Shown in pieces: positions 1,655 to 51,291 of a DNA stretch of 52,670 bases. Below the pieces are notes generated by a model. That model was not told the DNA's origin. It saw only the letters and a program-made list of their open reading frames with translations, and made no database searches. How positions within the stretch are numbered: position 1 is the first letter of the stretch; each line of letters opens with the position of its first letter. This DNA comes from Thermoplasmata archaeon (lineage in GTDB: Archaea; Thermoplasmatota; SW-10-69-26; JACQPN01; JAJPHT01). Where the stretch lies: the NCBI GenBank assembly GCA_034667685.1, contig JAXDQU010000085.1, positions 1-52,670 on the forward strand, read 5' to 3'. The position numbers and the translations under genes were made by a program.

Positions 1655-2530
1655 TCAGAGACGCCCGGCCTTCTGCAAGGCCATGAGGTCCTCGGTGGAG
1701 AGCTTCTCGCCCTTGCGGAACTTGTCGAAGATCTCGTCGGCCTCCGCGCGCGCGGACTGCGAGACGGTGGGCTGCCCCTGCGCGTCGAGCCTCAGGGCGC
1801 CCAGCACGCGCTCCAGGTCGCGCACGCTGCCCACCATGCCGATGTAGTGGCGGTGGACCTTGTCGGCCTCGACCTTGCTCTTGACGAACTCCGCCTGCGC
1901 GGCGTCGGCCTCCTTGCGGATCGCGTCGGCCTGCGCGAAGAGCCCTGCCATCGCCTCGTGCGCGGCCTGCGCCTCGTTGGCGAGGTGCGTGACGTGCGCG
2001 TGCTGGGCCTCGGCGGCCTCCTTGGCGACGCGCGCGGCGTCGGAGACGCCCTGCATCTCCGCGTCGACGTGGTCCTCGCCCTCGCGCGCCTTGAGCTCCT
2101 TGAGCTTCGCGCCGATGAGCTCGATGAGCGCCTTCTCCTTCTGCGGTGATAGCACGGTGGTCTGCTGCTGGTACTCCAGCTGCCGGATCTCGGCCTTCAG
2201 CTTCGCGGCGGAGACGCCGGCGCCCTCGTGGCCCCGGCCGCGGCGCAGCGCGTGGAGCGCCTCGGCCTTGGCGTGCGCCTCGTGGTTGAGCTCGTCGCGC
2301 TTGACCTTGGCCTCGCGCACCTGCTGGTTGAGCGCGTCGCGCCGGGCGCGGTGGCCGTTGGCCTGCTCGACGAGCCCGCGGACCTGAGCGTTCAGCTCGT
2401 CGCGGCGCTGCGCGTGCGCCTTGGTCCCGTCGTTGAGCCGGTCGCGCGTCTCGCGCTGACGGCGTGCCTGCTCGTTGAGCCGCTCCCGCTTCTGGGAGAA
2501 TGCGTCCACGAGCCGATCGCGGTCGTCCAC
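1655..2530 (-). CDS. Archaeal long coiled-coil protein (COG1340-like)
   Basis: Heptad-rich, RDELNA repeats, EYQQQTTVLSPQKEKALIE, C-terminal IFDKFRKGEKLSTEDL; CTTATA box about 26 nt upstream of GTG. Confidence 0.85.
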   Translation of the reverse strand: MDDRDRLVDAFSQKRERLNEQARRQRETRDRLNDGTKAHAQRRDELNAQVRGLVEQANGHRARRDALNQQVREAKVKRDELNHEAHAKAEALHALRRGRGHEGAGVSAAKLKAEIRQLEYQQQTTVLSPQKEKALIELIGAKLKELKAREGEDHVDAEMQGVSDAARVAKEAAEAQHAHVTHLANEAQAAHEAMAGLFAQADAIRKEADAAQAEFVKSKVEADKVHRHYIGMVGSVRDLERVLGALRLDAQGQPTVSQSARAEADEIFDKFRKGEKLSTEDLMALQKAGRL

Positions 2531-2580
2531 CAGTTCGGATAGAGATTGGGAAGCGTATAAGAACGTGACGACAAGCCGGC

Positions 2581-2982
2581 TCAGGCGCGCGCGATCCGCT
2601 CGGCCCAGCCGCGCACGCAGTCGCGCAACGCGTCCGCGTAGGCCTTGGCGTCGAGCGGCTTCGTCATGAAGCCGGAGGCGCCCAGCGCGCGCGCCCGCTC
2701 GACGTCGGCGCCCGCCTCGCTGCTGGTGAACATGACGATCGGCAGCTTCGCGGTGCGCGGGTCGCGGCGGGCAGCTTCGAGCACGTCGAAGCCGGACACG
2801 CGCGGCATCTTGATGTCGAGCAGCACGAGGTCGGGCGTCTCGCGCGCGAGGCGGGCCAGCGCGTCGTCGCCGTCCTGCGCGAACGCCACGTCGAGCGGAA
2901 GCTCGGCCGCGAGCCCCTTGAGCACGCGCGACGCGAGGAAGCGGTGGTCTGCGTTGTCGTCCACGACAAGGACCCGGAGCAT
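2581..2982 (-). CDS. Single-domain response regulator (CheY-like receiver)
   Basis: VLVVDD, DLVLLDIKMP (phospho-Asp), MFTSS, FMTKP. Confidence 0.95.
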   Translation of the reverse strand: MLRVLVVDDNADHRFLASRVLKGLAAELPLDVAFAQDGDDALARLARETPDLVLLDIKMPRVSGFDVLEAARRDPRTAKLPIVMFTSSEAGADVERARALGASGFMTKPLDAKAYADALRDCVRGWAERIARA

Positions 2983-3056
2983 CAGCGACCTCCCTTGTCG
3001 TGGACGCGACGACCCGCAGGTCGGCGCAGGTCCACGACGAGCACGCGCAGCGTCAC
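2982..3056 (-). pseudogene. 24-codon mini-ORF, probable remnant of a receiver-domain gene
   Basis: VTLRVLVVDLRRPAGRRVHDKGGR*; GTG overlaps the kinase TGA and its TGA overlaps the RR ATG; N-terminus matches the RR start LRVLVVD. Confidence 0.5.
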
Positions 3057-5737
3057 GTCCGCGCCTCCTTCGCGCCGGGCCGGAGGTCGACGCGGCGTGC
3101 CGCGCCCACGGCGGGGAGCGTCACGTGGAACGTCGTGCCCGCGCCCTCCTGGCTCTCGACGCGGATGGCGCCGCCGTGCGTGTCGACGATGCGCTTCACG
3201 ATCGCGAGCCCCACGCCGCTGCCGCCCGGGTCCTCCATGCCCGGCGCCGGCGCCCGCTGGAAGAGCGCGAAGACGCTCTCGCGGTGCCTCTCGGGGATGC
3301 CGCGCCCGTTGTCCTTCACGTGGAACGTCGCGCGGCCGCCTGCGACGTCGGCGCCCACCTCGATGCGCGGCGCGCGGTCCGGGTGGCGGTACTTGATGGC
3401 GTTGTCGAGGAGGTTCGTGAAGAGCTGCGCCATGCGCTTGCGCTCGCCGCGCACGCGGGGCAGGTCCGGCGCGACGTGGATCGCGGCGCCGGTGGCTGCG
3501 CTGCGGTCCCCGAGCGACGCGACGACCTCGGCGAGCACGGCGTCCATGTCCACCTCCTCGACGTCCTCGCGCACGCGGCCGATGCGCGACAATTCCAGGA
3601 TGTCGAGGATCAGCCCCTCCATCGTGCTGGCGTTCTTGCGGATGCGCTCCAGCCAGTGCGCCCCCTCGCCCGCGAGCGCCGCGGCGTACTCCTCCTCCAG
3701 CCCCTGCGCGTAGCCCTGGATGCTGATCAGGGGCGCCTTGAGGTCGTGCGAGACGCTGTAGAGGAACGACTCGATCTCGCGGCTCTTCTCGGTCAGCTCC
3801 GCGGTGCGCTCCGCGACGCGCGCCTCCAGCTGCGCCGCGTACTCGCGCAGCCGCTCCTCGAAGAGCGAGCGCCGGATGCCCACCGCGAGCTGCGCGCCCA
3901 ACGCTGATAGCACGTCGCGCGTGGGCTCCTCGTCGAGGCGGCGCGGCTCGCCCACGAGGACCAGCGCGCCCATCGCCTCGTTCTGCTCGACGAGCGGGAT
4001 CGCCAAGGCGCGCTCGCCCGCGAGCTCCCGCCCGCGCGTGGCCCGCGCCCCCATCGCTTCGCGCGCGAGCTGCGCCAGCGTCCGGCGCGCGTCCAACGTC
4101 AGCGAGCCCTCCAGCGCCGCCTCGCGCAGCGTCGTGCCATCTGCGCCCGCGATGAAGACCGCGCCCTTGCGGACGGGCACGAGCGAGGCGACCAGCGAGA
4201 GGCCGCTGGCGGCGAGCGCCGAGAGCGCGCGCTCCTCCGAGACGAGCCGCGCCATCTGGAAGCTCTTCTCGCGGATCAGCTCCTCGCGCCGCTCGCGCGT
4301 GACGTCGTGCGCGACGCCGAGCACGCGGACGGGCTTCGTGCCCCCCTCGAAGACGGCCGAGAGGTTCGCCACCACGGCCACGTCGCTCCCCTCGCGCCCC
4401 ACGAGGCGGAAGGGGACCGATAGCACCGGCGCGCCCTTCTCGAGCACGCCCTCGACGGCGCGCTGCAGCGTCGCGCGGTCGCCCTCCACGACGAGGTCGT
4501 ACGCGCTCCTGCCCACGAGGTCGCGCGGCGCGAGGCCCAGGAGCGGCTCGCAGAGCGGGCTGATGAACGACAGCTCGCCGTCGGGCTGCACGGTGAAGAT
4601 GAGGTCGTTGGCGCTCTCGACAAGGTTGCGGTAGCGCGCCTCGCTGGCGCGAAGGCCGTCCAGGCTCTCGTTGATGCGCGTCGCCATGTCGTTGAAAGTA
4701 TGGCCAAGCTCGGCGATCTCGTCGCTCCCCTCCGTGCGGATGCGCGAGGCGAGCCGGCCCGCGGAGAGCGCGCGCGCCGCCTCGGTGAGGTCGGTCACGG
4801 GGCGCACGATGCGCCGCGCGATGAGCACGCTCGCGAGCAGGATCGCGCCCGCGAGGATGCCGCTGAAGACGATGAGCACCGCCGAGAGGCGCGTGAGGCC
4901 CGCGTACGCCGTCGCGATGGACACCGTGTCCACGACGACCCAGCCGAGGTCGCGTACCGGCGCCCCCGCGCCCAGCGACGCCTCGCCCGTGGCCGGATCG
5001 GCGTACTCGACCCACGAATCGCCCGCGGTGGGATGAAGCGAGCGCGCGACGGGCGGCACGGCGCTCCAGTCGGGGCGCTCCGCGGCGAGCGTCTGGTTGG
5101 GGTGCGCGAGCAGCGCGCCCGTCGCGTCCACGAGGAAGACGCTCTGCCCGCCGCCAGGCGCGAAGGCCTGGAGCGCGTCGCCCAGCGTCGCGATGCGCAG
5201 GCTCCCCACGAGCACGCCGACGAACGCCCCCTGCACCGAGATGGGCGTCGCGAGCGGAAGCAGCGGCGCGCCGCCGGTCGTCACCGGGAGCACGGTGGCC
5301 GCGTTGCGGAAGCGCGTCACCACGAAGTCGTAGCCGGAGGCGTGGTCGTCGCCGATCGCCGCGCTCGCCTCGGGCCACGCCGCGACGACCTTCCCCGTGT
5401 CGTTGAGCACGTACGCCGACGCGAAGACCGGCCCGCCCCCCTGCGCGTTGCCCTCGACGAGCGACTGGAGCGCCAGCACGAGGCTCGCGCGGTCCGGCGC
5501 CGCCATCGCGGCGCGCATCGCAGCGCCGTTGGCCTGCGCGTCGAGCAGCACGCGCCCGTTCTGCACGTAGAGCGACGCGTAGCCCGCCGCCGCCTGCGCC
5601 GCCGCCTCGTGCGCGCTCCCCGCCTCGTTCGCCACCGCGCCGCGCGTCTCCGTGAGCGCGAGATAGCTCATCGCCATGAGCGGCAACGTGGCGATGAGGG
5701 CGAAGACGAGGAACATCTTCGCCTGGAGCGAGCGCAC
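3053..5737 (-). CDS. Membrane sensor histidine kinase (Cache-HAMP-PAS-GAF-HisKA-HATPase)
   Basis: Two TM segments flanking an extracellular domain, HAMP (DEIAELGHTFNDM), PAS, H-box SVSHDLKAPL, NLLDNAIKY, DNGRGI, GSGVGLAIV; GTG at 5737 after a TTCATAA TATA-like box. Confidence 0.93.
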   Translation of the reverse strand: MRSLQAKMFLVFALIATLPLMAMSYLALTETRGAVANEAGSAHEAAAQAAAGYASLYVQNGRVLLDAQANGAAMRAAMAAPDRASLVLALQSLVEGNAQGGGPVFASAYVLNDTGKVVAAWPEASAAIGDDHASGYDFVVTRFRNAATVLPVTTGGAPLLPLATPISVQGAFVGVLVGSLRIATLGDALQAFAPGGGQSVFLVDATGALLAHPNQTLAAERPDWSAVPPVARSLHPTAGDSWVEYADPATGEASLGAGAPVRDLGWVVVDTVSIATAYAGLTRLSAVLIVFSGILAGAILLASVLIARRIVRPVTDLTEAARALSAGRLASRIRTEGSDEIAELGHTFNDMATRINESLDGLRASEARYRNLVESANDLIFTVQPDGELSFISPLCEPLLGLAPRDLVGRSAYDLVVEGDRATLQRAVEGVLEKGAPVLSVPFRLVGREGSDVAVVANLSAVFEGGTKPVRVLGVAHDVTRERREELIREKSFQMARLVSEERALSALAASGLSLVASLVPVRKGAVFIAGADGTTLREAALEGSLTLDARRTLAQLAREAMGARATRGRELAGERALAIPLVEQNEAMGALVLVGEPRRLDEEPTRDVLSALGAQLAVGIRRSLFEERLREYAAQLEARVAERTAELTEKSREIESFLYSVSHDLKAPLISIQGYAQGLEEEYAAALAGEGAHWLERIRKNASTMEGLILDILELSRIGRVREDVEEVDMDAVLAEVVASLGDRSAATGAAIHVAPDLPRVRGERKRMAQLFTNLLDNAIKYRHPDRAPRIEVGADVAGGRATFHVKDNGRGIPERHRESVFALFQRAPAPGMEDPGGSGVGLAIVKRIVDTHGGAIRVESQEGAGTTFHVTLPAVGAARRVDLRPGAKEART

Positions 5738-6589: not shown

Positions 6590-7894
6590 CTATGATAGCT
6601 TCCAGAACTTGTACGCCGGCGTCCCGTCCTGATAGCAATAGTGGACGCCCTGGAACCGGGCGCGGAACGCGGCGACGCGCTCGGCGACCTTGGCGGGCGC
6701 CTCCTTCTTGACGACGGCGTCGACGAGGAACTGCGCGACCTCGGCCATGTCGGCCTCCTTCATGCCGATGCGCGTCATCTCTTGCGAGCCCAGGCGCAGG
6801 CCGCTGGGGTTCAACGCGCTGGTGTCGCCCGGCAGCATGTTCATGTTGGTGATGAGGCCGGCGTCCTCGAGCGCCTTGGCGGCCCACGCGCCGCCGCCGT
6901 GCGCCTTCACGTCGACGACGACCTGGTGGCTCATGGTGAAGCCGCGCTTCTCGCCGAGGACCTTCACGCCTCGGGTGTGAAGCTCCTGGGCGAGGGCCTT
7001 GGCGTTCCGGATCACCTGGTCGGCGTACGCCTCGCCGAAGTCGAGCGCCTCGGCGAGCGCGACGGTCTTCGCCGCGAGGTGGTGCAGGTGGTGCGACGAG
7101 ACGGTGCCGGGGAAGACGGCGCGGTCGAGCTTGCGCGCGAGCGTGCCCTGCTGCTCCTCCGCGCCCTCGGGGAAGCTGCCCAGGATCAGCGCGCCCTGGG
7201 GACCGGGGAGCGTCTTGTGCGTGGAGCCGGTGACGAAGTCCGCGCCCTCGCGCAGCGGGTCCTGGAACTTCCTGCCGGCGATGAGGCCCATGACGTGCGC
7301 GCCGTCGTACATGACCGACGCGCCGACCTCCTTGGCCGCCGCGGCGACCTCCTTCATCGGCGTGGGGAAGAGGAACATGCTCTGGCCGAACATGACGAGC
7401 TTGGGCTTCGCCTCGCGCACGAGCTTGACCGACTTCTCCACGTCGAGCGTCTGCTTGTCCTCGTCCCAGGGATAGGTGAGGATGTTGAGGCCGTGCAGCC
7501 CCGCGCCGCCGAACTTGGCGTGGCTGATGTGGCCGCCGTCCGCCGTGCCCACCGCGGTGATCGTGTCGCCCGCCTTCGTCGTGGCGGCGAACGCCGCGAT
7601 GTTCGCCTCGGTGCCCGAGACGCAGCGCACGTCCGCCCACGAGCAGCGGAACAGCTCCAGCGCCAGGCGCTTGCACTCGCGCTCCACCTCGTCGATGTAG
7701 ATCAGGCCCTGGTAGTAGCGCTTGCCGGGGTGCCCTTCCGCGTAGCGGTCGTGGAAGTCGGACGCGAGGAGCCGGCGCGCCGTGGGCGAGATGAGGTTCT
7801 CGCTGGCGATCATCGGGATGCAGCGGTTGAACCACTGCGTGTGGCGCTCCACCTGGTCGAGGACGTGGGCCGCCGCCTTCTCGTGTCCGGACAT
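6590..7894 (-). CDS. glyA: Serine hydroxymethyltransferase
   Basis: IASEN, RYAEG..RYYQG, GGHISH, YDGAH, GSTHKT (PLP Lys), SGLRLG. Confidence 0.97.
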   Translation of the reverse strand: MSGHEKAAAHVLDQVERHTQWFNRCIPMIASENLISPTARRLLASDFHDRYAEGHPGKRYYQGLIYIDEVERECKRLALELFRCSWADVRCVSGTEANIAAFAATTKAGDTITAVGTADGGHISHAKFGGAGLHGLNILTYPWDEDKQTLDVEKSVKLVREAKPKLVMFGQSMFLFPTPMKEVAAAAKEVGASVMYDGAHVMGLIAGRKFQDPLREGADFVTGSTHKTLPGPQGALILGSFPEGAEEQQGTLARKLDRAVFPGTVSSHHLHHLAAKTVALAEALDFGEAYADQVIRNAKALAQELHTRGVKVLGEKRGFTMSHQVVVDVKAHGGGAWAAKALEDAGLITNMNMLPGDTSALNPSGLRLGSQEMTRIGMKEADMAEVAQFLVDAVVKKEAPAKVAERVAAFRARFQGVHYCYQDGTPAYKFWKLS

Positions 7895-8184: not shown

Positions 8185-8349
8185 ATGAGCCACGTCCTGC
8201 TCAACAAGGGTCTCCTCGCCCGCACGAACGCCGCCTGCCCCGTCTGCGGGAACGCCGTCGAGATGACGCACGCCTTCAACGGCGCCCGGCTGCGCGAGTC
8301 CTACGGCTGCTATCGCTGCGGCCCGACGGTCTACACGGTGCGCGTCTAG
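8185..8349 (+). CDS. Small CPxCG zinc-ribbon protein (54 aa)
   Basis: MSHVLL...CPVCG...CYRCG; host-like codon usage. Confidence 0.75.
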   Translation: MSHVLLNKGLLARTNAACPVCGNAVEMTHAFNGARLRESYGCYRCGPTVYTVRV

Positions 8350-9662: not shown

Positions 9663-9667
9663 GGGTT

Positions 9668-10405: not shown

Positions 10406-10455
10406 CGGGCCGCGCACGAGGCCGCAACGCATCAAGCTGACCATCGGCGCGTCCT

Positions 10456-10594: not shown

Positions 10595-11929
10595 ATGCTG
10601 CTTCGGGAGCTGGCCATCCCGTTCGCCCCCGCCGAGACCTTCGCGCGCCTCTTCGCCGCGCACGAGGACGGCTTCCTCCTGGAGTCCGCAGAGGGTCCTG
10701 AGCGCCTGGCGCGCTACAGCATCCTGGGCCTCGACCCGGTGGGCAAGGTCGCGCTGGTGGACGGCGCGCTGCGCGTCAGCGGCGACCTCCCGGCGCCGCG
10801 CCAGGACGAGGCGCCCCTGGCGTACCTCCAACGCCTGCTCGCGCAGCACCCCACGACCGACCAGGGCTATCGTTACCTCGGTGGTCTCGTCGGACACGTC
10901 GGCTACGAGTTCACGCAGCGCCTCGAAAAGCTATCACCGCGCGCCAGCGGCCCCTTCCCGGAGATGGAGTTCGGGCTCTACCTGGACGGCCTCGTCTTCG
11001 ACCACCTCACCCGGCGCACGGTCTACTTCAGCCACGGGGCCGACCGCGGCGCCGAGCTCGAAGCCATCGCCAAGCGCCCGCACGCGCCCGCGCCGCCGCG
11101 CTTCGGCCCCGCGCGCGCGAGCGTCGACCAGCCGCGCTTCGAGAAGATGGTCGAGCAGGCCAAGCGCCACATCCACGAGGGCGACGTCTTCCAGGTCGTG
11201 CTATCACGGCGCTTCGACCTCGACGTCGAGGGCGACCTGCTCCCCTACTACGAGGCGCTGAAGAAGGCGAACCCGTCGCCCTACATGTATTACCTCAAGA
11301 GCGGCGAGCGCCGCCTCGTCGGCGCCAGCCCCGAGATGCTTGTCCGGGTCGACGGCGGCCGCGTCGAGACGTTCCCCATCGCCGGCACGCGCCCCATGGG
11401 CCGCAACCCGACCGAGACCGAACGCCTCGCCGCCGAGCTGCTCGCCGACCCGAAGGAGGCCGCCGAGCACGCGATGCTCGTGGACCTCGCGAGGAACGAC
11501 GTCGGGCGCGTCGCGGAGTTCGGCACCGTCAAGGTCAGCGAGTCGCGGCGCATCGAGCGCTTCAGCCACGTCCAGCACATCGTGAGCAAGGTCGAGGGGC
11601 GCCTGCGCCCGGGCAAGAACGCGCTCGACGCCTTCGCCGCGCTCTTCCCCGCCGGCACCGTCAGCGGCGCCCCCAAGGTGCGCGCGATGGAGATCATCCG
11701 CGACCTCGAAGCCGACGCGCGCGGCCCCTACGCGGGCGCGGTGGGCTACTTCTCCTTCAACGGCAACGCCGACGCCGCCATCTGCATCAGGACCCTCGCG
11801 GCGCACGGCCGGAAGGCCTCGGTGCAGGCCGGCGCCGGCATCGTCCACGATAGCATTCCCGAGGCCGAGGCGCGCGAGACCGAGGCGAAGGCGCGCGGCC
11901 TCCTCTCCGTCGCGGAGGGATTCCAGTGA
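10595..11929 (+). CDS. trpE: Anthranilate synthase component I
   Basis: FLLES, GDVFQVVLS, NPSPYMY, SPEMLV, PIAGTR, EHAMLVDLARND, FPAGTVSGAPK, QAGAGIV. Confidence 0.97.
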   Translation: MLLRELAIPFAPAETFARLFAAHEDGFLLESAEGPERLARYSILGLDPVGKVALVDGALRVSGDLPAPRQDEAPLAYLQRLLAQHPTTDQGYRYLGGLVGHVGYEFTQRLEKLSPRASGPFPEMEFGLYLDGLVFDHLTRRTVYFSHGADRGAELEAIAKRPHAPAPPRFGPARASVDQPRFEKMVEQAKRHIHEGDVFQVVLSRRFDLDVEGDLLPYYEALKKANPSPYMYYLKSGERRLVGASPEMLVRVDGGRVETFPIAGTRPMGRNPTETERLAAELLADPKEAAEHAMLVDLARNDVGRVAEFGTVKVSESRRIERFSHVQHIVSKVEGRLRPGKNALDAFAALFPAGTVSGAPKVRAMEIIRDLEADARGPYAGAVGYFSFNGNADAAICIRTLAAHGRKASVQAGAGIVHDSIPEAEARETEAKARGLLSVAEGFQ

Positions 11930-13620: not shown

Positions 13621-14382
13621 ATGGCCACGCTCGTGGATTTCGCCGAGGCCGCGCGCCGCCGCGTCGCCGCGGGCTACTATGATCTGAAGCGCGTGCCCGA
13701 CTTCTGCCCGCCGCGCTCGCCTCCCTCGCTCAGGGCCGCCCTGCTGGCGCGCCCGGGCGTCGTGGCGGAGATCAAGCCCGCGAGCCCCACCCAGGGCAGC
13801 ATGCGCGCGGACGTCGACGCCGGCGCGTTGGCGCGCGCGTTCGTCGCGGCCGGCGCGCGGGGTGTGAGCGCGCTCGCGGTGGACGAGGGCTTCGGCGGCT
13901 CGCTGGCGAACGTGATCGCGGCGAGCGGGGCCGGCGCGCCCGTGCTGTTCAAGGACTTCGTCGTGGACGAGGCGCAGGTCAAGGCGGCGCGGCGCTGCGG
14001 CGCGAGCGCCATCCTCCTCATCGAGGGCGTCTCGCCCCACGCGCTCGTGGACCGCGCGCACGCGCTGGGCCTCGAGGTGCTGCTTGAAGTGTACGACGCG
14101 GAAGGATATCGCCGCGCGGCCTCGACGAAGGCGGACCTCGTGGGCGTCAACAACCGCGACCTGCGCCGCGAGGGGCTGCCGGTCGACGCCTCGCGCGCGG
14201 CGCAGGTGCTATCAGCCTGCGGCGCGATGAAGCCCACGATGGCGCTCTCCGGCGTCGAGACGCCCGCGGACGTCGCGCGGCAATTGCGCGCCGGCGCGCG
14301 CGGCGTGCTCGTGGGCAGCTCGCTCATGCGCGCGAAGGACCCCGCGGCCGCGATGCGCGCGCTCGCCGAGGTGGTGGCGTGA
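13621..14382 (+). CDS. trpC: Indole-3-glycerol phosphate synthase
   Basis: [35 protein letters not shown]. Confidence 0.95.
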
Positions 14383-26769: not shown

Positions 26770-26826
26770 GTGAAGCCCCCGGAAGGATCAACGCGCGAGG
26801 GGCAGATAGCCTTGGTGGCGCACGCC

Positions 26827-42081: not shown

Positions 42082-42825
42082 TCACGCCCTCACGACGATG
42101 GTGTCGGCGATGCGGTCGCTCACGCGTTGCTTCTCCTTGGGGAAGGCGAGCACCATGATGATGACGTCCAGGATCAGGACGAAGGGCTGGAGCTTGGCGA
42201 GGTTGCGCACGAGGGCGTCGCGCGGGGTCATGGGTTGGCCGTCGGCGCGCATGACGCGGATGGCGAGCGCGCGCTTGCCCAGCGTGCGGCCGTCGTGCGC
42301 CTCCGTGAGGGTGAAGTAGCCCAGCACCGCGACGCCGCTGGCGACCGCGATGACGAGCTGCACGGCGAGGGGCCATTGCGTGCCGTGGAAGCCCCACGGG
42401 AAGAGGCCCCAGAGCCCCTCGGCGTCCGGCGTCGGGACGCCCACCCATCCGGGGTAGAACGTCATGAGGACCTTCTCGAGGAAGGTGTGGAGGAATGATA
42501 GCGCGATGCCCAGCACGAGCACGTCGAGGGCGAAGGCGCCCGCGCGCCGCCAGAAGAGGACGCGCTCCACGGGCTTGGCGAGCGGCTGCACGAAGGCGAC
42601 GGCGAGCTTCTCCTCGCCGCCCGCCTCGGCGAGCGCGGCCTCCAGGTCCTCGCGCGTGACCTCGGGGCGGCCCGCGGCGGTGGCGCGCGCCTCGCCGGCG
42701 GCGTGGAGGTGGCTCATCAGCTCGTAGGTGATGCCCGCGCGCTCGGCGTCCCCGAGGGCGTGGCGGGCGAGGATCCGGCGCACCATGGCGTCGAGCCAGG
42801 CGCGCGCTTCGATCGTCATCTGCAT
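42082..42825 (-). CDS. RDD-family membrane protein with N-terminal HAAS-like domain
   Basis: ELMSHL helical N-terminus; RRAGAFALD, GRTLGKRALAIRV, QRVSDRIADTIVV. Confidence 0.9.
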   Translation of the reverse strand: MQMTIEARAWLDAMVRRILARHALGDAERAGITYELMSHLHAAGEARATAAGRPEVTREDLEAALAEAGGEEKLAVAFVQPLAKPVERVLFWRRAGAFALDVLVLGIALSFLHTFLEKVLMTFYPGWVGVPTPDAEGLWGLFPWGFHGTQWPLAVQLVIAVASGVAVLGYFTLTEAHDGRTLGKRALAIRVMRADGQPMTPRDALVRNLAKLQPFVLILDVIIMVLAFPKEKQRVSDRIADTIVVRA

Positions 42826-44215: not shown

Positions 44216-46858
44216 TTATCTCGGCACTTGCGCGCGGACCAGCTCCTCTTCCTCGATCTCCGTCACCACGACGTGGCTGCCCTGCCGGCGCGAGGCGCCC
44301 GGGTAGAAGAGCGGCACGAGGAGCGTCGTGGCCACGAAGATGCAGCCGATGGCGAGCGCGGCGGCCAGCGCGCCTTGGCTTGATAGCACGAGCTGCATGG
44401 GCACGAAGAGCAGGAACGCGACGATGGTGGCGATGACGACGTAGAGGTTGGCCTTGCCCGTCGTGCGGTAGACCTCCTCCATGTCGCCCAGCTCGCGGTG
44501 GTTCCAGACGTACTGGATCGCGTAGTCGGAGCCCACGCTGATGAGCATGACCGTGGGCAGCATCAGCGTCATGGATTTCTGGATGCCGAACAGGGGAAGC
44601 AGGCCCAGCCACCAGATGCCCGCGACGACCATCGGCACCATCACCGCGAGCACGTCGCGCGGCTTGCGCAGCACCGCGAGCGCGATGAGGAACGTGAGGC
44701 CGGCCGCGACGTAGCTGACGTAGTCGAGCCACGGGAGGCCGTACTTCACGAAGAGGTAGAACGTGTCCTGCGTGCCCACGAGGTTGACGCCCTTCACGGT
44801 GGCGGGGCGCGTGGGCGCGCCGCCCGTGGGGCACCCGCTGCTGGATTGCTCCTTGTTGCCCACGTCGCAGTTGAGCGCGTCCCAGTCGCCCTGGAGGCCG
44901 GCGTAGTCTTCCTTGTCGATGTGGTAGAAGAAGTGCGTGACCGCGTAGTCGGCGTCGGGCGAGACGAAGAGCGAGACGAGCGGCGACCAGATGGTGCTGT
45001 TGTACATCACCTGGATGTCGTGCTGCACCGCGGCCTTGTCGTGCGGGACGTTGAAGTTCGGGTCGCTCTTGGCTTTCTCGGCGAGGATGCTCGGATTGGT
45101 CAGGCCGTTGCGCAGGTCGTAGTAGGTGCGCAGGCCCAGCATCAGCGAGGCGACGTTGCTCGCCTTCGGCACGTGGACCTTGTCCTTGATGATGTTGTTG
45201 TCCAGGTCCGAGAGATACTGGAGCGTGCTCCAGTCGGCGATGTCGCCCTTGATCACGACGAGCTCCGTGCCCGAGCCGCCCAGCGCGTTGTTGTAGAACT
45301 GATAGCTTTCCTCCAGGTAGTCGCCCTTGCGGAATCCGCCCGAGATGCCGAAGTACTCCTCGAGCTTCGTGCTCTCGTAGAGGAGGGCGCCCGTGAGCGC
45401 GACCGTGACGACGATGACCGCCACGCGGTTGCGGCTGATGCCCCGCGCGACGGCGCCCATGAGGAGGCTGGGCTTGAACGGCTTGGGCTTGACGTTCTTC
45501 CGGCGAAGGCTCTGCGCGGCCGGGATGAACATGATCGAGAGGAAGAAGAGCGCGCCGAAGGCGAACACGCAGAGGAACGCCAGGTCGCGCATGATGTGGA
45601 AGCCCGCGAGGAACATCGCCAGCAGGCCCGCGATCGACGTCACGCTCGCGATGGCGAGGGCGGCGCCGGCGCGGCGGCCCACCATCTTCCACACCTCGTC
45701 CTTGGAGCGCCCGCTCGCGACGTACTCCATGTACTGGTTCGTGACGTAGATGGCGTACTCCTTGCCCACGCCCATCGTGATGGGCACGATGAGCAGGCCG
45801 AAGAACGTCAGCGGGATGTGCATGTACCCCATCAGGCCGTAGGTCCAGACGAGGCCCATGCAGAAGGAGACGAACGCGATGAACATCGAGGTGACGTCGG
45901 TGAACGCGACGACGAGGACGAAGAACGTCGCGACGAACACGATGGGCCCGAACGTCTGGAAGTCGCTCTGCGCCAGCTCCGTGAGGTGGCCGTTGATGGA
46001 CTGGCCCAGGATGTAGGTCTTCGAGCAGTCGAACGCGGGCCCGTTGTTGTTGAGGTTCTTCTGCGCCATGTTGGGGCAGCCGATCGTGCGCCACTCCTCG
46101 GCGGCGTGGACGAAGCGCCCCGCGACGGGCACGACCTTCTCGGGGCCGGCCCTCGTGAGGTTCACGTCGTAGATGAAGACGATGATCGCGCCCGTGAAGT
46201 TCTCGTTGGTCTGCGCGGCGATGACGTCGGGCGCGGCGGCTTCGAGGATGGCGAGGTCCTTGTTGAGCGTCGCGTCGTCGCCGGGCATCGCATAGGCCGA
46301 TTCCTCGGGGGGCTTCACGGGCGGCGCGCTGGGGTTGCAGCCTGCGGGGGCGGGCGCGCCGGGGAGAGGGACCGGAAGCGCGTTGGGCGCGCTGCACGCG
46401 ACCGCGTTGGCCGGGTCGGGCTGGCCCGACTGCGTGTAGTTGATGAGCTTGACGAGGTAGGGCAGGTCGATGACGTAGTGCAGCTCCGGCACGCGCGCCT
46501 GGACGAACTTCGCCGCCTCCTCCGCGGCGCGCACCGAGTTGCCCGACGTGATGTTGTCGCGATGACAGCTCTGGCCTTGCGGCGTCTGGTCGCACACCTT
46601 GGCCTGCGAGACCTCGATCCACATCGTGTCCGCGTTGCGGAAGCCGGGGATCTTGGTGATGGCCTCGCCGTTCGCCACCGCCGAGGGGTGCGAGTCGGGC
46701 ATCAGGTCGTAGTCGGTGGAGCGCACCTGGATCTCGGTGAGGCCGAAGGCGAACGCCAGCGTGATGACCAGGAACACGGCGACGACGGCCTTCGCGTGGC
46801 GGACGCTCCACGTGAAGATGCGCGAGACGCCCTTGCCGATCGCGTGGTCGACGTCCAT
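44216..46858 (-). CDS. MMPL/RND-family transporter
   Basis: Duplicated 1+5 TM layout with two large loops; GVGKEYAIY and VGSDYAIQ; TTTAAG TATA upstream. Confidence 0.92.
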   Translation of the reverse strand: MDVDHAIGKGVSRIFTWSVRHAKAVVAVFLVITLAFAFGLTEIQVRSTDYDLMPDSHPSAVANGEAITKIPGFRNADTMWIEVSQAKVCDQTPQGQSCHRDNITSGNSVRAAEEAAKFVQARVPELHYVIDLPYLVKLINYTQSGQPDPANAVACSAPNALPVPLPGAPAPAGCNPSAPPVKPPEESAYAMPGDDATLNKDLAILEAAAPDVIAAQTNENFTGAIIVFIYDVNLTRAGPEKVVPVAGRFVHAAEEWRTIGCPNMAQKNLNNNGPAFDCSKTYILGQSINGHLTELAQSDFQTFGPIVFVATFFVLVVAFTDVTSMFIAFVSFCMGLVWTYGLMGYMHIPLTFFGLLIVPITMGVGKEYAIYVTNQYMEYVASGRSKDEVWKMVGRRAGAALAIASVTSIAGLLAMFLAGFHIMRDLAFLCVFAFGALFFLSIMFIPAAQSLRRKNVKPKPFKPSLLMGAVARGISRNRVAVIVVTVALTGALLYESTKLEEYFGISGGFRKGDYLEESYQFYNNALGGSGTELVVIKGDIADWSTLQYLSDLDNNIIKDKVHVPKASNVASLMLGLRTYYDLRNGLTNPSILAEKAKSDPNFNVPHDKAAVQHDIQVMYNSTIWSPLVSLFVSPDADYAVTHFFYHIDKEDYAGLQGDWDALNCDVGNKEQSSSGCPTGGAPTRPATVKGVNLVGTQDTFYLFVKYGLPWLDYVSYVAAGLTFLIALAVLRKPRDVLAVMVPMVVAGIWWLGLLPLFGIQKSMTLMLPTVMLISVGSDYAIQYVWNHRELGDMEEVYRTTGKANLYVVIATIVAFLLFVPMQLVLSSQGALAAALAIGCIFVATTLLVPLFYPGASRRQGSHVVVTEIEEEELVRAQVPR

Positions 46859-47524: not shown

Positions 47525-49021
47525 ATGCCCTGGAGCCTCCTGGCCGGCACGTCGCGCCTTCACCGCGCGCCCGCCCGGCCCGGAGGGCTCGCGGACGAAA
47601 GCGGCCCAGGCCTCACGCGCCGCGCGCGCGCCCTCGCGTGGGTCGGCGGCGCCGCGACGGTCTGGGCGCTCGCCGCGCTCCTCGCCCACGCGCCCCCGCT
47701 CCCCTGGCTCTCGTTCCCGCTGGGCGCCGTCGCGCTCGCGCTGGGCGTGCTGGGCCATGGCCGCGTGACGCTCACGCTCGCCGGCGTCGCCGCCACCGCC
47801 GCGCTCGCCTTCGCGCTCGCGCCGCTCCCGCTGGCGCCCGCGGGCTGGGCCGGCTGGGCCCTCCCGATCGCCGTCGCAATGCTATCACCCCTCGTCGCAG
47901 GCCTGCGCCTGGCCGCGCTGGAGCGCGCCTTCGACGCCAGCGGCCGCCGCGCCTCGTGGAGCACCGTCGCGCGCCTCGCGCTCGCCTGGAAGCGCCTCCC
48001 CCTCGCCTTCGCGCGCGGCCTCTCGCTGGCCGGCGTCGCGCTCCTCGACCTCGCCACGGCCCCGCTCGCGCCGCGCGACCGCCTCCACGCCGAAGCGGAC
48101 CTCGACGCGCTGGCCGCCGCCCTCGCGCAGGCCGGCGCCACCACCGAGCCGATGGGCCGCGGGCTCCTCGTGCGGCTCGACGCCGCCGCGCCCTCGGTCC
48201 GGCTGCGCCCGCGCCGCGCGCCCTTCCCCTTCCTCGCGCGCGATTCGCACCTGGAGATCCGCGGCGACGCGACCCAGGCCCGCAAGCTCCGCGCGCTCCT
48301 CGAAGGCCCCTGCTGCCACGCGGTCGTCTTCGCGTGGTCCGACGCGGGCGTGCGGCTGGAGCGCCGCCTCAACGCGATGCTCCGCGAGGCGCAGGTCGCC
48401 CAGACGCTGGAGGAGCGCAGCCTGCTCATGGAGGAGGCCAACCGCCTCGCCCACGCGCTCGTGGAGCGCGACCTGAACGCCGAGGAGCACACGATCCTCG
48501 CCACCATGAAGGGACAGCGCGTGCGCGGCCTCCTCGCCACCAAGATGCTATCAGAGCCCCCCGGCTCGCGCGTCGAGGGGCGCGTCGTCGCCCCCGCCGC
48601 CGCGATGGCCCCGCCGCTGGCGCGCGTCCTCGACGCCGGCGGCCTCGCCGCGGTGCGGCGCCTCGTCTTCGTCCCGCACTGGGTCGTCCCGCTCGCGACG
48701 CCCTGGGGCGAGTCGGAGGTCCTCGTCAACGCGCTCACCGGCAAGGCCGAGCCCGACGGCGACGCGCTCCTCGCCGCCATGCGCCGCCGCGCCCCCTCGC
48801 ACTTCCTCGACGCCGGCAGCAACGCGCAGTTCCTCCCCGCGCCCGCCCCCACCGCCGCGCTCCTGCGCGAGCTGCGCGGCCGCGGCGCGCTGGAGATGAC
48901 GCCCGCCGCGCTCGAATTGGTCTACGTGCCCTTCGTCGGCTCGAACGAAGGCTACGTCAACGCCGTCACGGGCGGCGCCGCGCCGGACCTCGGCCCCGCG
49001 CTCGCGGCGCCCGCCGCTTGA
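47525..49021 (+). CDS. Hypothetical membrane protein
   Basis: Four N-terminal TM; two repeats of a (Y/F)VP(H/F)..VNA(L/V)TG motif; GTTAAG TATA upstream. Confidence 0.75.
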   Translation: MPWSLLAGTSRLHRAPARPGGLADESGPGLTRRARALAWVGGAATVWALAALLAHAPPLPWLSFPLGAVALALGVLGHGRVTLTLAGVAATAALAFALAPLPLAPAGWAGWALPIAVAMLSPLVAGLRLAALERAFDASGRRASWSTVARLALAWKRLPLAFARGLSLAGVALLDLATAPLAPRDRLHAEADLDALAAALAQAGATTEPMGRGLLVRLDAAAPSVRLRPRRAPFPFLARDSHLEIRGDATQARKLRALLEGPCCHAVVFAWSDAGVRLERRLNAMLREAQVAQTLEERSLLMEEANRLAHALVERDLNAEEHTILATMKGQRVRGLLATKMLSEPPGSRVEGRVVAPAAAMAPPLARVLDAGGLAAVRRLVFVPHWVVPLATPWGESEVLVNALTGKAEPDGDALLAAMRRRAPSHFLDAGSNAQFLPAPAPTAALLRELRGRGALEMTPAALELVYVPFVGSNEGYVNAVTGGAAPDLGPALAAPAA

Positions 49022-49022
49022 G

Positions 49023-49214
49023 ACGTTCGCTGGACGTGCAACGTGCGCCGTGAACGTGCGACGTGAACGTTGAACGTGAGTCGTGAACGAGAACGTGAAC
49101 GACCGCCTTGGCTAGATCTGGCCAGATCTAGCTGAGGCGCGCCGGCGTCCGGCCGTTCACGTTCTCGTTCACGTTCACGGCGTTCGTTCCGCGTTCACGT
49201 TACACGTTACACGT
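49023..49214. repeat. Tandem-inverted element of 6-bp GTGAAC units around a perfect 22-bp palindrome
   Basis: GTGAACGAGAACGTGAACG (49083-49101) pairs with 49154-49172; GCTAGATCTGGCCAGATCTAGC at 49111-49132. Confidence 0.88.
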
Positions 49215-49368
49215 CGCGCGGCGCTCGCGCTGCCGTCGGGCCCCAAGTTCCCCTGGGCCTCGGCCCTGCGAATCTTAGCGTTGGCTCGCCCAAGCTCGCT
49301 TCGCAGCCGCGTGTCCTCGCTCGCGCTGCCAATCGATGCGCAGAAAGCCAATCCGGCCGGGTGTTCGC

Positions 49369-51291
49369 TCATCCGGCCGGGTGGCTCGCGATCCAGGCCT
49401 GGAGCCGCTCGACGAGCAGCGCGGAGAGCTCCTGGCCGCTCACCTTGCCCTTGTGGCGCGCCATGATCGGGCCCATCAGCGGGCCTTGCGCGCGCAGCCC
49501 CTGCTTCGCGACGAGCGCGGCATTCTTGGCGATCTCCCCGTCGATCTCGTGGCGCAGCGCGTCCTTGTCGAGCCCGCCCAGGCCCAGCGCCTGCGCGGCC
49601 TGCTGCGCGCCGATCTCCTGGCGCGCCATGGCCTCGACCACCGCGGGCAGCGCCTCCTTGGCGAACGCCCCTTCCTTGAGGCGCAGCATCGCGTCGAGCA
49701 GGCGCTCCTGCGTGAGGCGCGCCTCGGGCACTCCCTTGGCGAGAAGCTCGGGGAGGGTTGATAGCAAAAGGCGCGCGGCCTCCTTCTGCAGGCCCGTGGC
49801 CTTGACGAGCGCCTCGAACTCGCGGTCCATCTCGCCGCGCACGAGCTGGCCGATCTGCTCCTGGGAAAGCTCGGCGTAGGTCTTCGGGAAGCGCGCGAGC
49901 TTCTGGTCCATCGTCTCGGGCATGTGCGCCCGGATGCGGGCCACGGTCTTCGCGTCGATGCGCAGGGGCGGCACGTCCGTCTCGGGGTACATGCGCGCGC
50001 CGCCGGGGAGCGGGCGCAGGTAGCGCGAGGTGCCGTCGGGGTTGAGGTCGCGCGTCTCCTCGGGGACGCCTTCGAGCAGCGCGGCGGCGCGGGCGAGCAC
50101 GGCGTCGAGCGCGGCGCGCGCCACGTCGCGCTTCTCCACCACGAGCGCGAAGGCGTCCTTCGGCCCGCAGCCGAGGCGTTGGCGCGCGGCGTCGGCCTCG
50201 ACCTGCGCGATGCCGTAGGCGGGAAGCTCGTCGCTGTGGAAGATGCCCTTGACGCCGGCCTTCGTCTTGGCGTAGTCGGCCAATTCGCGGCCCACGCGCG
50301 GCGGAGGCATCGGCGCGTCCGTCTTCTTCCCGAGCAGGCCCGCGAGGAAGGGGAGCCGGACGCCGTGGACGCCGCCGCCGGAGGCGATGGCGCTCGCGAT
50401 CGTCTTGGCGCCGCTCGCGCGGAAGTCCTCGGTGAGGTCGACGACGGGCTGCTGATAGCTTTCAGGCGCCGCTCCCAGGGCGCGAAGCGACTCGCGCATC
50501 TCCACCAGGTGAGCCTGTCTCGCCACTTCCCACTCGATGGCGGGCTCGATGAGGCGAAGCTCCTGGACGCCCTTGATCTCGACGCGGGCGCCCTCGCGGA
50601 TGCTGACGTTGACGTCCTGGCGGATCGTGCCGATGCCGCGCTTCGCCTTGCCCGTGGCGCGCAGGGCGCTGCCGATGGCGAGGGCGACCTCGCGGGCGTG
50701 GCTCGGAGATTTGATATCAGGCTCGGTGGCGATCTCCACGAGGGGGATGCCGAGGCGGTCGAGGCGGTAGCGCTGGAGGTTGCCCACGCGGTCGAGCCGG
50801 CGCGCGCTGTCCTCCTCCAGGCAGAAGGTGGCCATGCGGACCGCGCCCTCCTTCGCGTCGACGTGCCCGCGTGTGGCGAGGAGGCTCGTGCGCTGGAAGC
50901 CCGACGTGTTGCTGCCGTCCACGACGATCTTGCGCATGATGTGCACCTCGTCGACCGGCGTCGCGTGGAGCAGGAGCGCCATCTGGAGCGCGGCCTCCAG
51001 CGCCTCGGGCGTCATGGCGTGCGGGGGCTCCTCGTCCATCTCGACGAGGCACGCGCTCGCGCGGTCGCCCAGGTACTCGAAGCGCAGCGACTTGCGCGCC
51101 TCCTCCAGCGCGGCGCGGTCGACCTCGCCCAGCTCGCTCGCGGTGGGGTGGAGCAGCCGGCGGAACGTGACGTCGGCGTGCTCCGCATCGTCGAGGCGCG
51201 AGGGGCAGCAGCAGAAGAGCTTGGGCGTGTCGAGCTGCTGGTGGATCTCCAGCCCGGCCTTGAAGCCCAACGCGGCGTAGTCGAGCGTCAC
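49369..51291 (-). CDS. gatE: Glu-tRNA(Gln) amidotransferase subunit E
   Basis: GLEIHQQL, DEEPPH, MRKIVVDGSNTSGFQRT, LEEDSAR, LDRLGIPLVEI, GTIRQDVNVSI, HSDELPAYG, ARMYPETD. Confidence 0.98.
   Translation of the reverse strand: MTLDYAALGFKAGLEIHQQLDTPKLFCCCPSRLDDAEHADVTFRRLLHPTASELGEVDRAALEEARKSLRFEYLGDRASACLVEMDEEPPHAMTPEALEAALQMALLLHATPVDEVHIMRKIVVDGSNTSGFQRTSLLATRGHVDAKEGAVRMATFCLEEDSARRLDRVGNLQRYRLDRLGIPLVEIATEPDIKSPSHAREVALAIGSALRATGKAKRGIGTIRQDVNVSIREGARVEIKGVQELRLIEPAIEWEVARQAHLVEMRESLRALGAAPESYQQPVVDLTEDFRASGAKTIASAIASGGGVHGVRLPFLAGLLGKKTDAPMPPPRVGRELADYAKTKAGVKGIFHSDELPAYGIAQVEADAARQRLGCGPKDAFALVVEKRDVARAALDAVLARAAALLEGVPEETRDLNPDGTSRYLRPLPGGARMYPETDVPPLRIDAKTVARIRAHMPETMDQKLARFPKTYAELSQEQIGQLVRGEMDREFEALVKATGLQKEAARLLLSTLPELLAKGVPEARLTQERLLDAMLRLKEGAFAKEALPAVVEAMARQEIGAQQAAQALGLGGLDKDALRHEIDGEIAKNAALVAKQGLRAQGPLMGPIMARHKGKVSGQELSALLVERLQAWIASHPAG

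Follow-up and report, generated by a model that had tools for sequence, protein, structure and literature searches.

The DNA under study is a 52,670-nucleotide contig (JAXDQU010000085.1 of assembly GCA_034667685.1; hereafter the window) from an archaeon of the Thermoplasmata, and the element in question is a short word, GCTATC(A), that is scattered over its genes. This word is one arm of a DNA-level box of 8 bp, TG[A/C]TA[T/G]CA, that is hyperabundant in one genus of uncultured soil Thermoplasmatota of about 71% GC. A sequence-only reading of the window had taken WGCTATC(A) as the unit; the real unit is the 8-bp family, and its commonest member is the palindrome TGATATCA. The palindrome was missed because the window has only 2 copies of TGATATCA, compared with 12 boxes of the TGCTATCA type.

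The window is contig C85 of the source assembly, G000 (3.48 Mb in 124 contigs, 71.1% GC, GC3 about 96%, 99% complete). G000 to G004 denote the five genomes of the box-rich genus, G005 to G008 four sister genera of the same family, and L001, L002, L003 and L005 orthologous loci of relatives that were aligned to the window. A codon log-odds caller of our own gave 3,362 genes covering 84% of G000, and Pfam matches were obtained for 31 of the 39 window genes submitted, including trpEGDCFBA, SHMT, cytochrome oxidase and GatD/GatE. Word counts were compared with null models: for the window, synonymous codons were permuted inside each of its 44 genes (1000 shuffles); genome-wide, 40 shuffles kept the amino-acid sequence and the codon usage of each gene; and for non-genic DNA an order-3 Markov model was used with both-strand counts.

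Genome-wide k-mer counts against codon-shuffled and Markov nulls, which had been proposed along with the sequence-only reading, reveal a strong excess of the box words. In genes, the palindrome TGATATCA occurs 303 times where the codon null expects 5.0 (61x) and ranks first of all 65,536 8-mers; it is also the top palindromic 8-mer of G000. In sense orientation TGCTATCA ranks second (233 vs 7.6 expected, 31x) and its complement TGATAGCA ranks fifth (67 vs 0.7 expected, 96x). The excess extends to non-genic DNA, with a both-strand count of 66 for TGATATCA vs 3.2 expected and of 46 for TGCTATCA vs 6.6. The 3.48 Mb of G000 contain 378 copies of TGATATCA and 329 of TGCTATCA/TGATAGCA, that is 707 perfect TGMTAKCA sites, or about one perfect box per 4.9 kb, and about 1,900 copies of the core, one per 1.8 kb. 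Raw counts also separate GCTATC (1181) from ACTATC (138), CCTATC (215) and TCTATC (197). The zero-order estimate by which the word had originally been judged is a poor yardstick: genome-wide it predicts 944 GCTATC sites, close to the 1181 seen, and the excess of GCTATC is visible only against Markov and codon-aware nulls.

The limits of the family are sharp. Variants outside it are rare in G000 (3 copies of TGCTAGCA, 6 of TGGTATCA and 9 of TGTTATCA), and the CTAG-centred form is missing, GCTAGC itself being depleted (13 vs 83.7, codon null). Setting apart the A-to-C change at position 3 (329 copies), one-letter deviants are commonest at the first or last letter, with 164 copies of CGATATCA vs at most 56 for other inner changes. 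G[AC]TATC or its complement lies inside all of the top 9-mers and 44 of the 45 top 10-mers listed, the exception being CGCGCTGCGC. A minor flank form, TATCGTT, is the top 7-mer of G000 (141 vs 17 expected, Markov), and this flank too reflects a choice at the DNA level, as Glu is encoded by GAA 30 times and GAG twice before CGA TAT C, but once and 19 times, respectively, before CGN TAC C. We also considered larger units. A longer repeat or mobile element is rejected, as the flanks are not conserved past about 10 bp and third-position A/T is at its baseline of 2-3% beyond 6 nt; an extended 12-bp palindrome, AACGATATCGTT, has 0 copies in G000.

Within the window, all 29 GCTATC/GATAGC sites that had been counted by hand are present at the positions given. 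Dinucleotide-preserving shuffles of the window yield a mean of 9.92 sites (sd 2.63, maximum 17), and 0 of 100 reach 29; codon-preserving shuffles yield 5.01 ± 1.89 genic GCTATC sites (maximum 12) vs 28 observed, and 0 of 1000 reach 28. The description of the sites also stood up well: 19 of the 29 extend to GCTATCA, 12 of them form the full TGCTATCA, and GCTATC is mostly preceded by A or T (T 17, A 7, G 3, C 2). The sister words had been put at about 1-3 copies each, which holds for ACTATC and TCTATC (1 each) but not for CCTATC (4). The reading frames are as described, with 14 sites in xxG CTA TCx (Leu-Ser), 10 in xGC TAT Cxx (x-Tyr-x), 4 as antisense GAT AGC (Asp-Ser) and 1 intergenic. The suggestion that selection acts on the DNA is borne out in so far as the force acts on DNA and not on a codon pair: antisense and non-coding DNA show the excess over the codon-preserving null as well as three sense frames. 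The gap between 17.8 and 25.8 kb, by contrast, carries no signal: a largest gap of at least 8,065 bp arises in 23% of uniform placements (P = 0.23). The sites in the window, together with further boxes and GATATC cores, are the following (palindromic or otherwise unassigned features are given as unstranded).

2147..2154 (-): perfect box TGCTATCA, frame xxG CTA TCA, in the DUF7121 gene 1655-2530(-)
3905..3912 (-): perfect box TGCTATCA in the histidine kinase gene 3053-5737(-)
4418..4425 (-): 7-of-8 box TGCTATCG in the histidine kinase gene 3053-5737(-)
5661..5668 (-): core GCTATC (AGCTATCT), frame xGC TAT C, in the histidine kinase gene 3053-5737(-)
6593..6600 (-): 7-of-8 box AGCTATCA at the 3' end of the SHMT (glyA) gene 6590-7894(-)
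6630..6637 (-): perfect box TGCTATCA in the SHMT (glyA) gene 6590-7894(-)
8308..8315 (+): 7-of-8 box TGCTATCG, conserved in L003 and L005, TGCTACCG in L001
10087..10094 (+): 7-of-8 box TGCTATCG, antisense GAT AGC, in the cyclophilin-type gene 9668-10444(-), conserved in L005
10865..10872 (+): core GCTATC followed by GTT (minor flank form TATCGTT) in trpE, conserved in L001 and L005
10929..10936 (+): 7-of-8 box AGCTATCA in trpE, not in L001
11199..11206 (+): perfect box TGCTATCA in trpE; TGCTGTCG, TGCTCTCG and TGCTTTCG in relatives
11848..11855 (-): 7-of-8 box TGCTATCG, antisense in trpE; GACAGC in L001
12398..12405 (+): 7-of-8 box CGCTATCA in trpG (CGC TAT CAT, the same in L002 and L005); CGATATCA (CGA TAT CAT) in L001
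13424..13431 (+): perfect box TGCTATCA in trpD, in none of 5 compared relatives
14104..14111 (unstranded): core GATATC (GGATATCG) in trpC
14207..14214 (+): perfect box TGCTATCA in trpC, conserved in L001
14655..14662 (unstranded): core GATATC (CGATATCC) in trpF
15616..15623 (-): perfect box TGCTATCA, antisense in trpB
17777..17784 (-): core GCTATC (AGCTATCC) in gene 17392-18966(-)
17832..17839 (unstranded): perfect palindromic box TGATATCA in gene 17392-18966(-)
24500..24507 (unstranded): core GATATC (CGATATCG) in the PAS-domain gene 24340-26580(-)
25842..25849 (+): 7-of-8 box TGCTATCC, antisense in the PAS-domain gene 24340-26580(-)
26804..26811 (-): core GCTATC (GGCTATCT), intergenic
29337..29344 (-): core GCTATC (GGCTATCT) in gene 29294-30142(-)
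31041..31048 (unstranded): 7-of-8 box TGATATCG, outside called genes
33387..33394 (unstranded): core GATATC (CGATATCG) in the BNR-repeat gene 33061-34425(+)
33872..33879 (+): perfect box TGCTATCA in the BNR-repeat gene 33061-34425(+)
36077..36084 (-): 7-of-8 box AGCTATCA in the cytochrome oxidase subunit I gene 34816-36546(-)
42496..42503 (-): 7-of-8 box CGCTATCA in the RDD-family gene 42082-42825(-)
44381..44388 (-): perfect box TGCTATCA in the MMPL-family gene 44216-46858(-)
45300..45307 (-): 7-of-8 box AGCTATCA in the MMPL-family gene 44216-46858(-)
47880..47887 (+): perfect box TGCTATCA in gene 47525-49021(+)
48546..48553 (+): perfect box TGCTATCA in gene 47525-49021(+)
49759..49766 (-): perfect box TGCTATCA in gatE 49369-51291(-)
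50453..50460 (-): 7-of-8 box AGCTATCA in gatE 49369-51291(-)
50712..50719 (unstranded): perfect palindromic box TGATATCA in gatE 49369-51291(-)

The trpG site at 12399, where CGC TAT CAT and CGA TAT CAT replace each other as a synonymous swap, reveals that GCTATC and GATATC belong to one evolutionary class. Contigs from two soil metagenome runs, X1 and X2, are identical to the window (0 other letters) over the pieces containing the sites 2148-5662, 8309-10088 and 13425-14208; the source sample of the assembly may be X1 or X2. Next to the trp operon (10586-17063) the window also contains two adjoining genes for cyclophilin-type peptidyl-prolyl isomerases, 8346-9662(-), which encodes 438 aa with a long extra region, and 9668-10444(-).

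The perfect boxes in genes of G000 lie in the frames xxT GAT ATC A (294), xTG CTA TCA (199) and TGC TAT CA (31), whereas the Ala-Ile frame GCT ATC is nearly unused (8 of the 1181 GCTATC sites). Their cost in codons is considerable, as the word accounts for 358 of the 591 CTA codons, 260 of the 562 TCA codons and 626 of the 1752 TAT codons in the genome. The strand check that had been asked of the word does find a bias towards the sense strand; however, this is mostly a matter of coding constraint, since both orientations are enriched (31x and 96x), and it does not point to an RNA signal.

Where the protein allows a box, the box is often there. In the context x-Asp-Ile-(A..) it is present in 294 of 627 cases in G000 and 16 of 50 in G003, which belongs to the same genus, but in 0 of 31 in G007 from a sister genus; the corresponding fractions for xTG-Leu-Ser are 199/709, 10/57 and 0/27, and for xG[CA]-Tyr-CA they are 326/432, 20/29 and 1/15. 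The GC content of G007 is 71.5% in its first 84 kb, and permissive contexts are 2-3 times commoner per codon in G000 than in G007. The odds of TAT are 272:103 in the GC_CA context vs about 1:20 elsewhere, or about 60-fold per synonymous site, and A/T occupies 72-90% of the synonymous positions of boxes.

The proteome is affected as well. DII (130 vs 44.9), DIT (222 vs 100.6) and DIK (92 vs 42.6) exceed the dipeptide-Markov expectation, and DII, DIT, DIK and DIN, at 1.9-2.9-fold, rank just under the N-x-T sequons. Amino-acid conservation at box sites is ordinary: we considered an excess of amino-acid divergence at boxes and rejected it, because identical windows (4 of 33 with G007, 17 of 52 with G003) are near the numbers predicted from 55% and 72% identity. 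As observations in their own right, the N-x-T sequons are the most over-represented tripeptides in G000 (NAT 542 vs 213, NGT 397 vs 165, NLT 324 vs 126, NVT 377 vs 164), which suggests heavy N-glycosylation or proteome-wide selection for sequons. Tandem short repeats are also abundant, mostly in uncalled stretches: (GGCTGA)n words such as CTGAGGCT (about 270-680 copies), units of the AGTCCTGAGCCC type and CACAGAGG (254 copies). These probably encode low-complexity linkers rich in P, Q, E and S; the tripeptides PQP and PPP are enriched too.

The abundance of the box is limited to one genus of Thermoplasmatota. The five genomes of this genus contain 378, 210, 141, 111 and 53 copies of TGATATCA and, in the same order, 329, 151, 229, 72 and 63 copies of TGCTATCA on both strands; in a sample of G003 the box is the top 8-mer, with 25 sites vs 0.36 expected. 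The four sister genera have only 2-5 copies of TGATATCA and 1-10 of TGCTATCA, and twelve genomes of the same order or class have 0-9 copies of TGATATCA. In a scan of 301 genomes of the phylum, raw counts of TGATATCA reach 430 in other families; we considered a wider occurrence in the phylum and rejected it, as these high counts are compositional and result from low GC and common GAT ATC codons. In samples of two such genomes, G074 (GC 0.47) and G254 (GC 0.39), the box is found 14 times vs 4.3 and 18 times vs 6.1 (zero-order, both-strand), and it is not among the top palindromes.

A scan for intergenic clusters in G000 found four boxes within 55 bp immediately upstream of a gene for a protein of 52 aa (C17:50655-50813). 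The gene is single-copy, with no paralogues in G000, and has orthologues at 48-87% identity across the family, although it was not found in G001 and G006. Several lines of evidence point to a ribbon-helix-helix (RHH) protein. Among the homologues, 7 of 73 are named as CopG/Arc/MetJ regulators (JGI names) and 1 carries PF01402, whereas the 52-aa protein itself has no Pfam match at E <= 0.01; the ribbon KQVLFR is invariant among the orthologues, and the proteins of the box-rich genus have Lys at position 13 and a tail rich in Lys. The AF2 monomer is predicted as an extended strand followed by two helices, and its top Foldseek matches are all RHH proteins (NikR, Arc, MazE, CopG), with weak E values of 0.66-2. 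Modelled as a homodimer, the protein scores 0.43 vs 0.00 for the best of 3 controls, with a predicted interface formed by an antiparallel ribbon (residues 4-10/4-10), a contact agreement between runs of at least 94% and a partner pLDDT of at least 73. The mark for a dimer is reached by 20 of 30 proteins whose solved structure is a pair of one chain, and by 1 of 23 with a single-chain structure, counts that are only rough as they rest on our own alignment; the pass of the 52-aa protein may reflect likeness to solved RHH dimers.

The position of boxes before this gene is not confined to the box-rich genus. Boxes are present in the 260 bp upstream of the orthologue in all 7 genomes that yielded the gene, including the motif-poor G007 (1 box, 13 nt before the ATG), G005 (4) and G008 (2). 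The joint Poisson probability of the upstream boxes is about 3e-10 at the non-genic box density of G007 (3.0 per 10 kb). In the G005 assembly TGCTATCA occurs just once, and that copy lies upstream of the RHH gene, as does one of the two copies of TGATATCA; the chance of this is about 3.5e-8. In genera that never amplified the word, an operator-like array is therefore already formed by the two members of the family, with the A/C degeneracy included. It is about an even call, in our judgment, whether the box is recognised by a homodimer of this conserved RHH regulator of the CopG/Arc/MetJ type, our candidate reader. A divergent neighbour was considered as a partner gene and rejected, as in G003 it encodes a beta-eliminating lyase.

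A second array lies in a short spacer before the gene of an MTS-domain methyltransferase in the exosome/rpoL neighbourhood (G000:C106:96007-96089). This array is specific to the genus: four genomes have 4-6 boxes and G002 has 1, whereas G005, G006 and G007 have 0; in G001 it comprises six boxes, including three abutting 8-mers (TGATATCA-TGATATCA-AGCTATCA). Within the genus (L179-L183) the boxes bracket the spacer exactly, as the upstream stop codon lies within a box (ATG TGA TAGC or TGATATC) and, in G003, G001 and G004, the downstream start directly follows one (TGATAGC ATG). A box upstream of ribosomal protein L2 in G007 was rejected as an operator, being a stop-start junction. Just beyond the box array at the RHH locus, inverted repeats of G-runs and C-runs (GGGGGC...GCCCCC hairpins) are found in L172 (G000:C17, about 50880-50945) and L173 (G003:C14). 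In G001, contig C18 (L189, about 3230-3480), the place downstream of aIF5B that elsewhere holds the RHH gene contains a small Cys-rich ORF and a palindromic repeat in several copies with the form GAAATTTTTCTGCGGAAAAATTTC; an insertion of a MITE-like element or hairpin repeat may have replaced the RHH locus.

Perfect boxes are spaced as in a Poisson process (CV 0.98 vs 1.01 for random placement), with a mild depletion of close pairs (0.6% of spacings under 100 bp vs 1.9% at random), and neither regular short-range spacing nor tandem phasing is seen genome-wide in G000, whose 124-contig draft restricts this result to short range. Most contigs have about 2 boxes per 10 kb, in genic and non-genic DNA about equally, and the density is lower on the low-GC contigs C118 (0.86) and C42 (0.48). 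The weakest and the strongest quintile of codon bias each have a reduced density too, by a relative measure whose 7-mer pattern counts palindromes twice.

Turnover is rapid. DNA identity between G000 and G003 is about 77% and protein identity 72%; over 246 kb of alignment the two genomes share 10 boxes, while 37 are found in G000 only and 12 in G003 only. Boxes found in G000 only often stand opposite D-V (GAC GTC) or L-S in preferred codons in G003, and all steps that create a box from preferred codons are changes from GC to AT. Boxes are nevertheless kept between G000 and G003 more often than control words, namely genic 8-mers with at least two A/T third letters (8/18 vs 89/831 and 8/44 vs 109/1351), which answers, in small numbers, a question about conservation left by the sequence-only reading. 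Recurrent drive would give the same result.

How did the box spread? The explanation we favour, if tentatively and at somewhat less than an even chance, is that a box read by the RHH protein spread by directional fixation bias (molecular drive) and not by a benefit at each site. A fixation bias would favour box-creating changes from GC to AT wherever the position tolerates them. The engine of this bias would be tied to occupancy by the reader: bound or near-cognate sites would escape the force that keeps third positions at G or C, which would be GC-biased repair or gene conversion, and the word would thereby become an attractor. We favour drive because the spacing is Poisson, tolerant contexts are saturated, turnover is rapid, copy number ranges sixfold in the genus, and the synonymous odds are shifted about 60-fold. 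An engine based on escape through occupancy would fit the direction of all box-creating steps and the A/T content of box synonymous positions. Taken to its full extent, this would mean an operator of an RHH repressor that has 'gone viral', with about 700 perfect and about 1,900 core copies generated because occupied DNA escapes a GC-enforcing bias and the footprint acts as a mutational attractor, one powerful enough to change codon choice and the peptide composition. We regard this full version as unlikely; if it were true, it would be a drive mechanism apart from uptake bias, proposed for uptake signal sequences (USS), and from the methyl-directed repair of the HIP1 model.

Several points weigh against drive by an RHH-read box. 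The link between the RHH protein and the box is drawn from promoter position and the autoregulatory habit of RHH proteins. The RHH gene is missing beside aIF5B in G001 (86% complete), yet this genome has 111 + 72 boxes and the six-box array. Because the gene is single-copy and common to motif-poor genera, it cannot alone explain amplification in one genus. Boxes genome-wide are mostly solitary, and RHH proteins usually require at least two adjacent boxes. All frame and genic assignments depend on our own gene calls. We know of no prokaryotic precedent for an occupancy-dependent escape from GC-biased repair. Finally, the above-control retention equally fits purifying selection, and passages of Xu et al. 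(PMC5861425) take the conservation of HIP1 sites as selection.

An alternative explanation is that the boxes are adaptive, dispersed binding sites for a protein (RHH or other), with each copy under selection for nucleoid organisation, for self-marking against nucleases or defence systems, or for positioning by occlusion, as Xu et al. have put forward for HIP1. The retention between G000 and G003, the even density across most contigs and between genic and non-genic DNA, and the depletion of close pairs are all expected if this were the case, and the HIP1 precedent in the passages of Xu et al. (PMC5861425) points the same way. However, the spacing is otherwise Poisson, only 10 of 47 G000 boxes are common to G003, box number ranges sixfold within the genus, and the near-saturation of contexts and rewriting of tripeptides imply a per-site effect too large for one of about 700-1900 redundant sites. 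We consider adaptive sites improbable.

Less probable still, and a decidedly weak contender, is a HIP1-like process linked to methylation, in which an orphan methyltransferase marks G[A/C]TATC and either methyl-directed repair (Elhai's model) or methylation-dependent acquisition ratchets the word up. A palindromic octamer in 31-61-fold excess over the codon null in all frames would be in keeping with such a process, as would one-letter deviants that lie mostly at the outer letters, a pattern that the available text of Elhai's report describes for HIP1 (PMC4390886); part of another report states that HIP1 boosts transformation in a way that depends on methylation (PMC13756078). G000 also has two orphan DNA methyltransferases in housekeeping contexts, a C5 enzyme beside a primase gene (C63:5378-6319) and an SPPY N4/N6 enzyme related to PDB 2ZIE (C106:108905-109960). 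However, both have orthologues at 57-68% identity in the motif-poor G006-G008, and the variable region of the C5 enzyme does not separate the genus from the outgroup; the earlier guess that the word is a methylase site is so far not supported. A third enzyme of the SPPY type (C97:3226-4446) is found in G000 only, with no orthologue in the other 8 family genomes. In terms of co-occurrence, no methyltransferase was found in the family genomes that tracks box abundance. The other four genomes of the genus yielded no enzyme of the Dam/D12 class, and in G000 there is one borderline match, on the low-GC contig C118 (21.8 bits, or 22.1 with its neighbours, at a cut-off of 22). G000 yielded no match for Vsr or MutH and no canonical MutS (best 27.6 bits, under the cut-off); NucS/EndoMS is present, with no evident link to the box.

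G000 contains further strain-specific or partial methyltransferase genes, C103:7434-8375 (C5) and C22:3771-4613, of which the former, at a contig end beside hypothetical genes, may be of mobile-element origin. An EcoRV-type nuclease was not found in G000, in a search without a positive control in which the controls were unmatched too. Under the codon null, several 6-bp palindromes are avoided in G000: CTCGAG (852 vs 2653), GAGCTC (1104 vs 2376), CAGCTG (275 vs 1019), CCCGGG (1221 vs 2223), TGGCCA (411 vs 973), CTGCAG (446 vs 916) and GCTAGC (13 vs 84). This is a classic signature of restriction avoidance, and its sign is opposite to that of the box, which is enriched rather than avoided.

With the same low probability as a methylation-linked process, the box might have spread by a drive similar to that of uptake sequences or Chi, if fragments carrying it were preferentially taken up, or spared degradation, and then recombined through the gene pool of the genus. 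The word is genus-wide and absent from neighbours, its copies sit where the protein tolerates them and have reshaped the proteome, and their density is lower on low-GC, probably acquired contigs and in the quintile of lowest codon bias; the USS of Pasteurellaceae likewise encode preferred tripeptides. On the other hand, DprA (PF02481) and ComEC (PF03772) had no match in the 99% complete G000, in searches whose controls were matched in 11 and 10 of 14 genomes and which did not extend to archaeal-specific import systems. An 8-bp palindrome is unlike known uptake signals and Chi, no receptor or nuclease is tied to the box, and to our knowledge no archaeal uptake signal has been described.

That there is no DNA-level signal at all, the boxes arising instead from the usage of amino acids or dipeptides, from biased codon pairs, from repeats or from errors in the assembly, has a negligible probability: beyond the closeness of the zero-order expectation to the GCTATC count nothing speaks for it, codon-preserving shuffles fall short 30-60-fold, the excess appears in three frames, antisense and non-coding DNA of five genomes, a sister genus with equal GC has the box in 0-1 of its matching contexts, the flanks are unconserved beyond about 10 bp with third-position A/T at baseline within 6 nt, and independent metagenome contigs agree with the window, so that neither a single codon pair nor an assembly artefact accounts for the sites.

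Words of this kind, such as HIP1 and the uptake sequences, are among the clearest examples of DNA-level forces that override coding, and their origin has been debated for 30 years. The box offers a favourable case. In a genome whose third positions are about 96% GC, every copy of an AT-rich word shows up in the form of rare codons, which makes codon tables a gauge of how strong the force is; gain and loss can be polarised, as copy number ranges sixfold in the genus and sister genera of equal GC lack the box. The phenomenon is young and bounded. The candidate reader is concrete, a 52-aa RHH protein that has the same box in its promoter where genera never amplified it, and should the RHH link prove true, the question becomes how an ordinary operator is converted into an attractor across the genome. 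The box can also serve as a sharp binning or taxonomic marker for the genus in soil metagenomes.

In the open papers, without their supplementary files, we found no report of this word, or of a hyperabundant word of the HIP1 or USS kind, in Archaea. The class that had been guessed for the word, HIP1-like, uptake-like or a chromatin-protein site, holds in kind; so far there is no support for Chi, as the palindrome has no polarity, nor for uptake of the bacterial type, as DprA and ComEC were not found. One close likeness is to HIP1 (GCGATCGC) and the alternate HIPs, which are also palindromic octamers, occur inside and between genes in all frames, are restricted to lineages and have an unsettled function. 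HIP1 is 15-300-fold more abundant than expected, according to passages of PMC5861425, and its one-letter deviants concentrate at the outer letters in what is accessible of PMC4390886. As in HIP-type words, the box is a palindromic octamer in many-fold excess, independent of frame in and between ORFs, and conserved above control. It differs in that it is archaeal, AT-rich in a 71% GC genome and limited to a genus and not a phylum, in that its spacing is Poisson at short range in a 124-contig draft, and in that the non-palindromic TGCTATCA is nearly as common as the palindrome. A methyltransferase co-occurring with high abundance, as expected for a HIP-type word, is also lacking, on the evidence of co-occurrence.

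The DNA uptake sequences (DUS) of Neisseria and the USS of Pasteurellaceae are similarly words of a genus or family, dense in core genes, that sit where the protein tolerates them and bias peptide usage, and they are thought to have spread by drive and not by benefit at each site. The box shares the lineage-specific, peptide-biasing character of these words but differs in being a palindrome of 8 bp, in its density (1 perfect copy per 4.9 kb vs about 1 per kb) and in the missing competence genes; we know of no uptake system for the lineage that bears it. Other short words dispersed over the chromosome are read by proteins, namely Chi, KOPS, matS and the SlmA and Noc binding sites (SBS and NBS). 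The density of perfect boxes is similar to that of Chi in E. coli. Chi and KOPS, however, are asymmetric and strand-skewed, whereas matS, SBS and NBS are palindromic, number in the tens and leave codon usage undistorted; a Chi-type role is not supported, because the main member of the family is palindromic and without polarity, and the asymmetric member is enriched both ways.

The operators of RHH proteins (Arc, CopG, ParG) and the met-boxes of MetJ resemble the box in the 8-bp palindrome, the abutting tandem copies and the arrays upstream of an RHH gene; according to the source text available for PMC3413123, MetJ binds tandemly repeated 8-bp palindromic met-boxes. Here too, arrays of palindromic boxes lie upstream of the gene of a regulator, for which an RHH fold with an N-terminal ribbon dimer is predicted. 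Known RHH operators number a handful per genome, as does the box in the sister genera, whereas G000 has 707 perfect, mostly solitary boxes that lie within genes, and the RHH link is positional. We conclude that the box is kin to HIP1 and USS/DUS, and that what sets it apart is its occurrence in an archaeon, its AT-richness against an extreme GC3, its limitation to one genus, the lack of a co-varying methyltransferase or of known competence genes, and its coincidence with the operator of an RHH gene.

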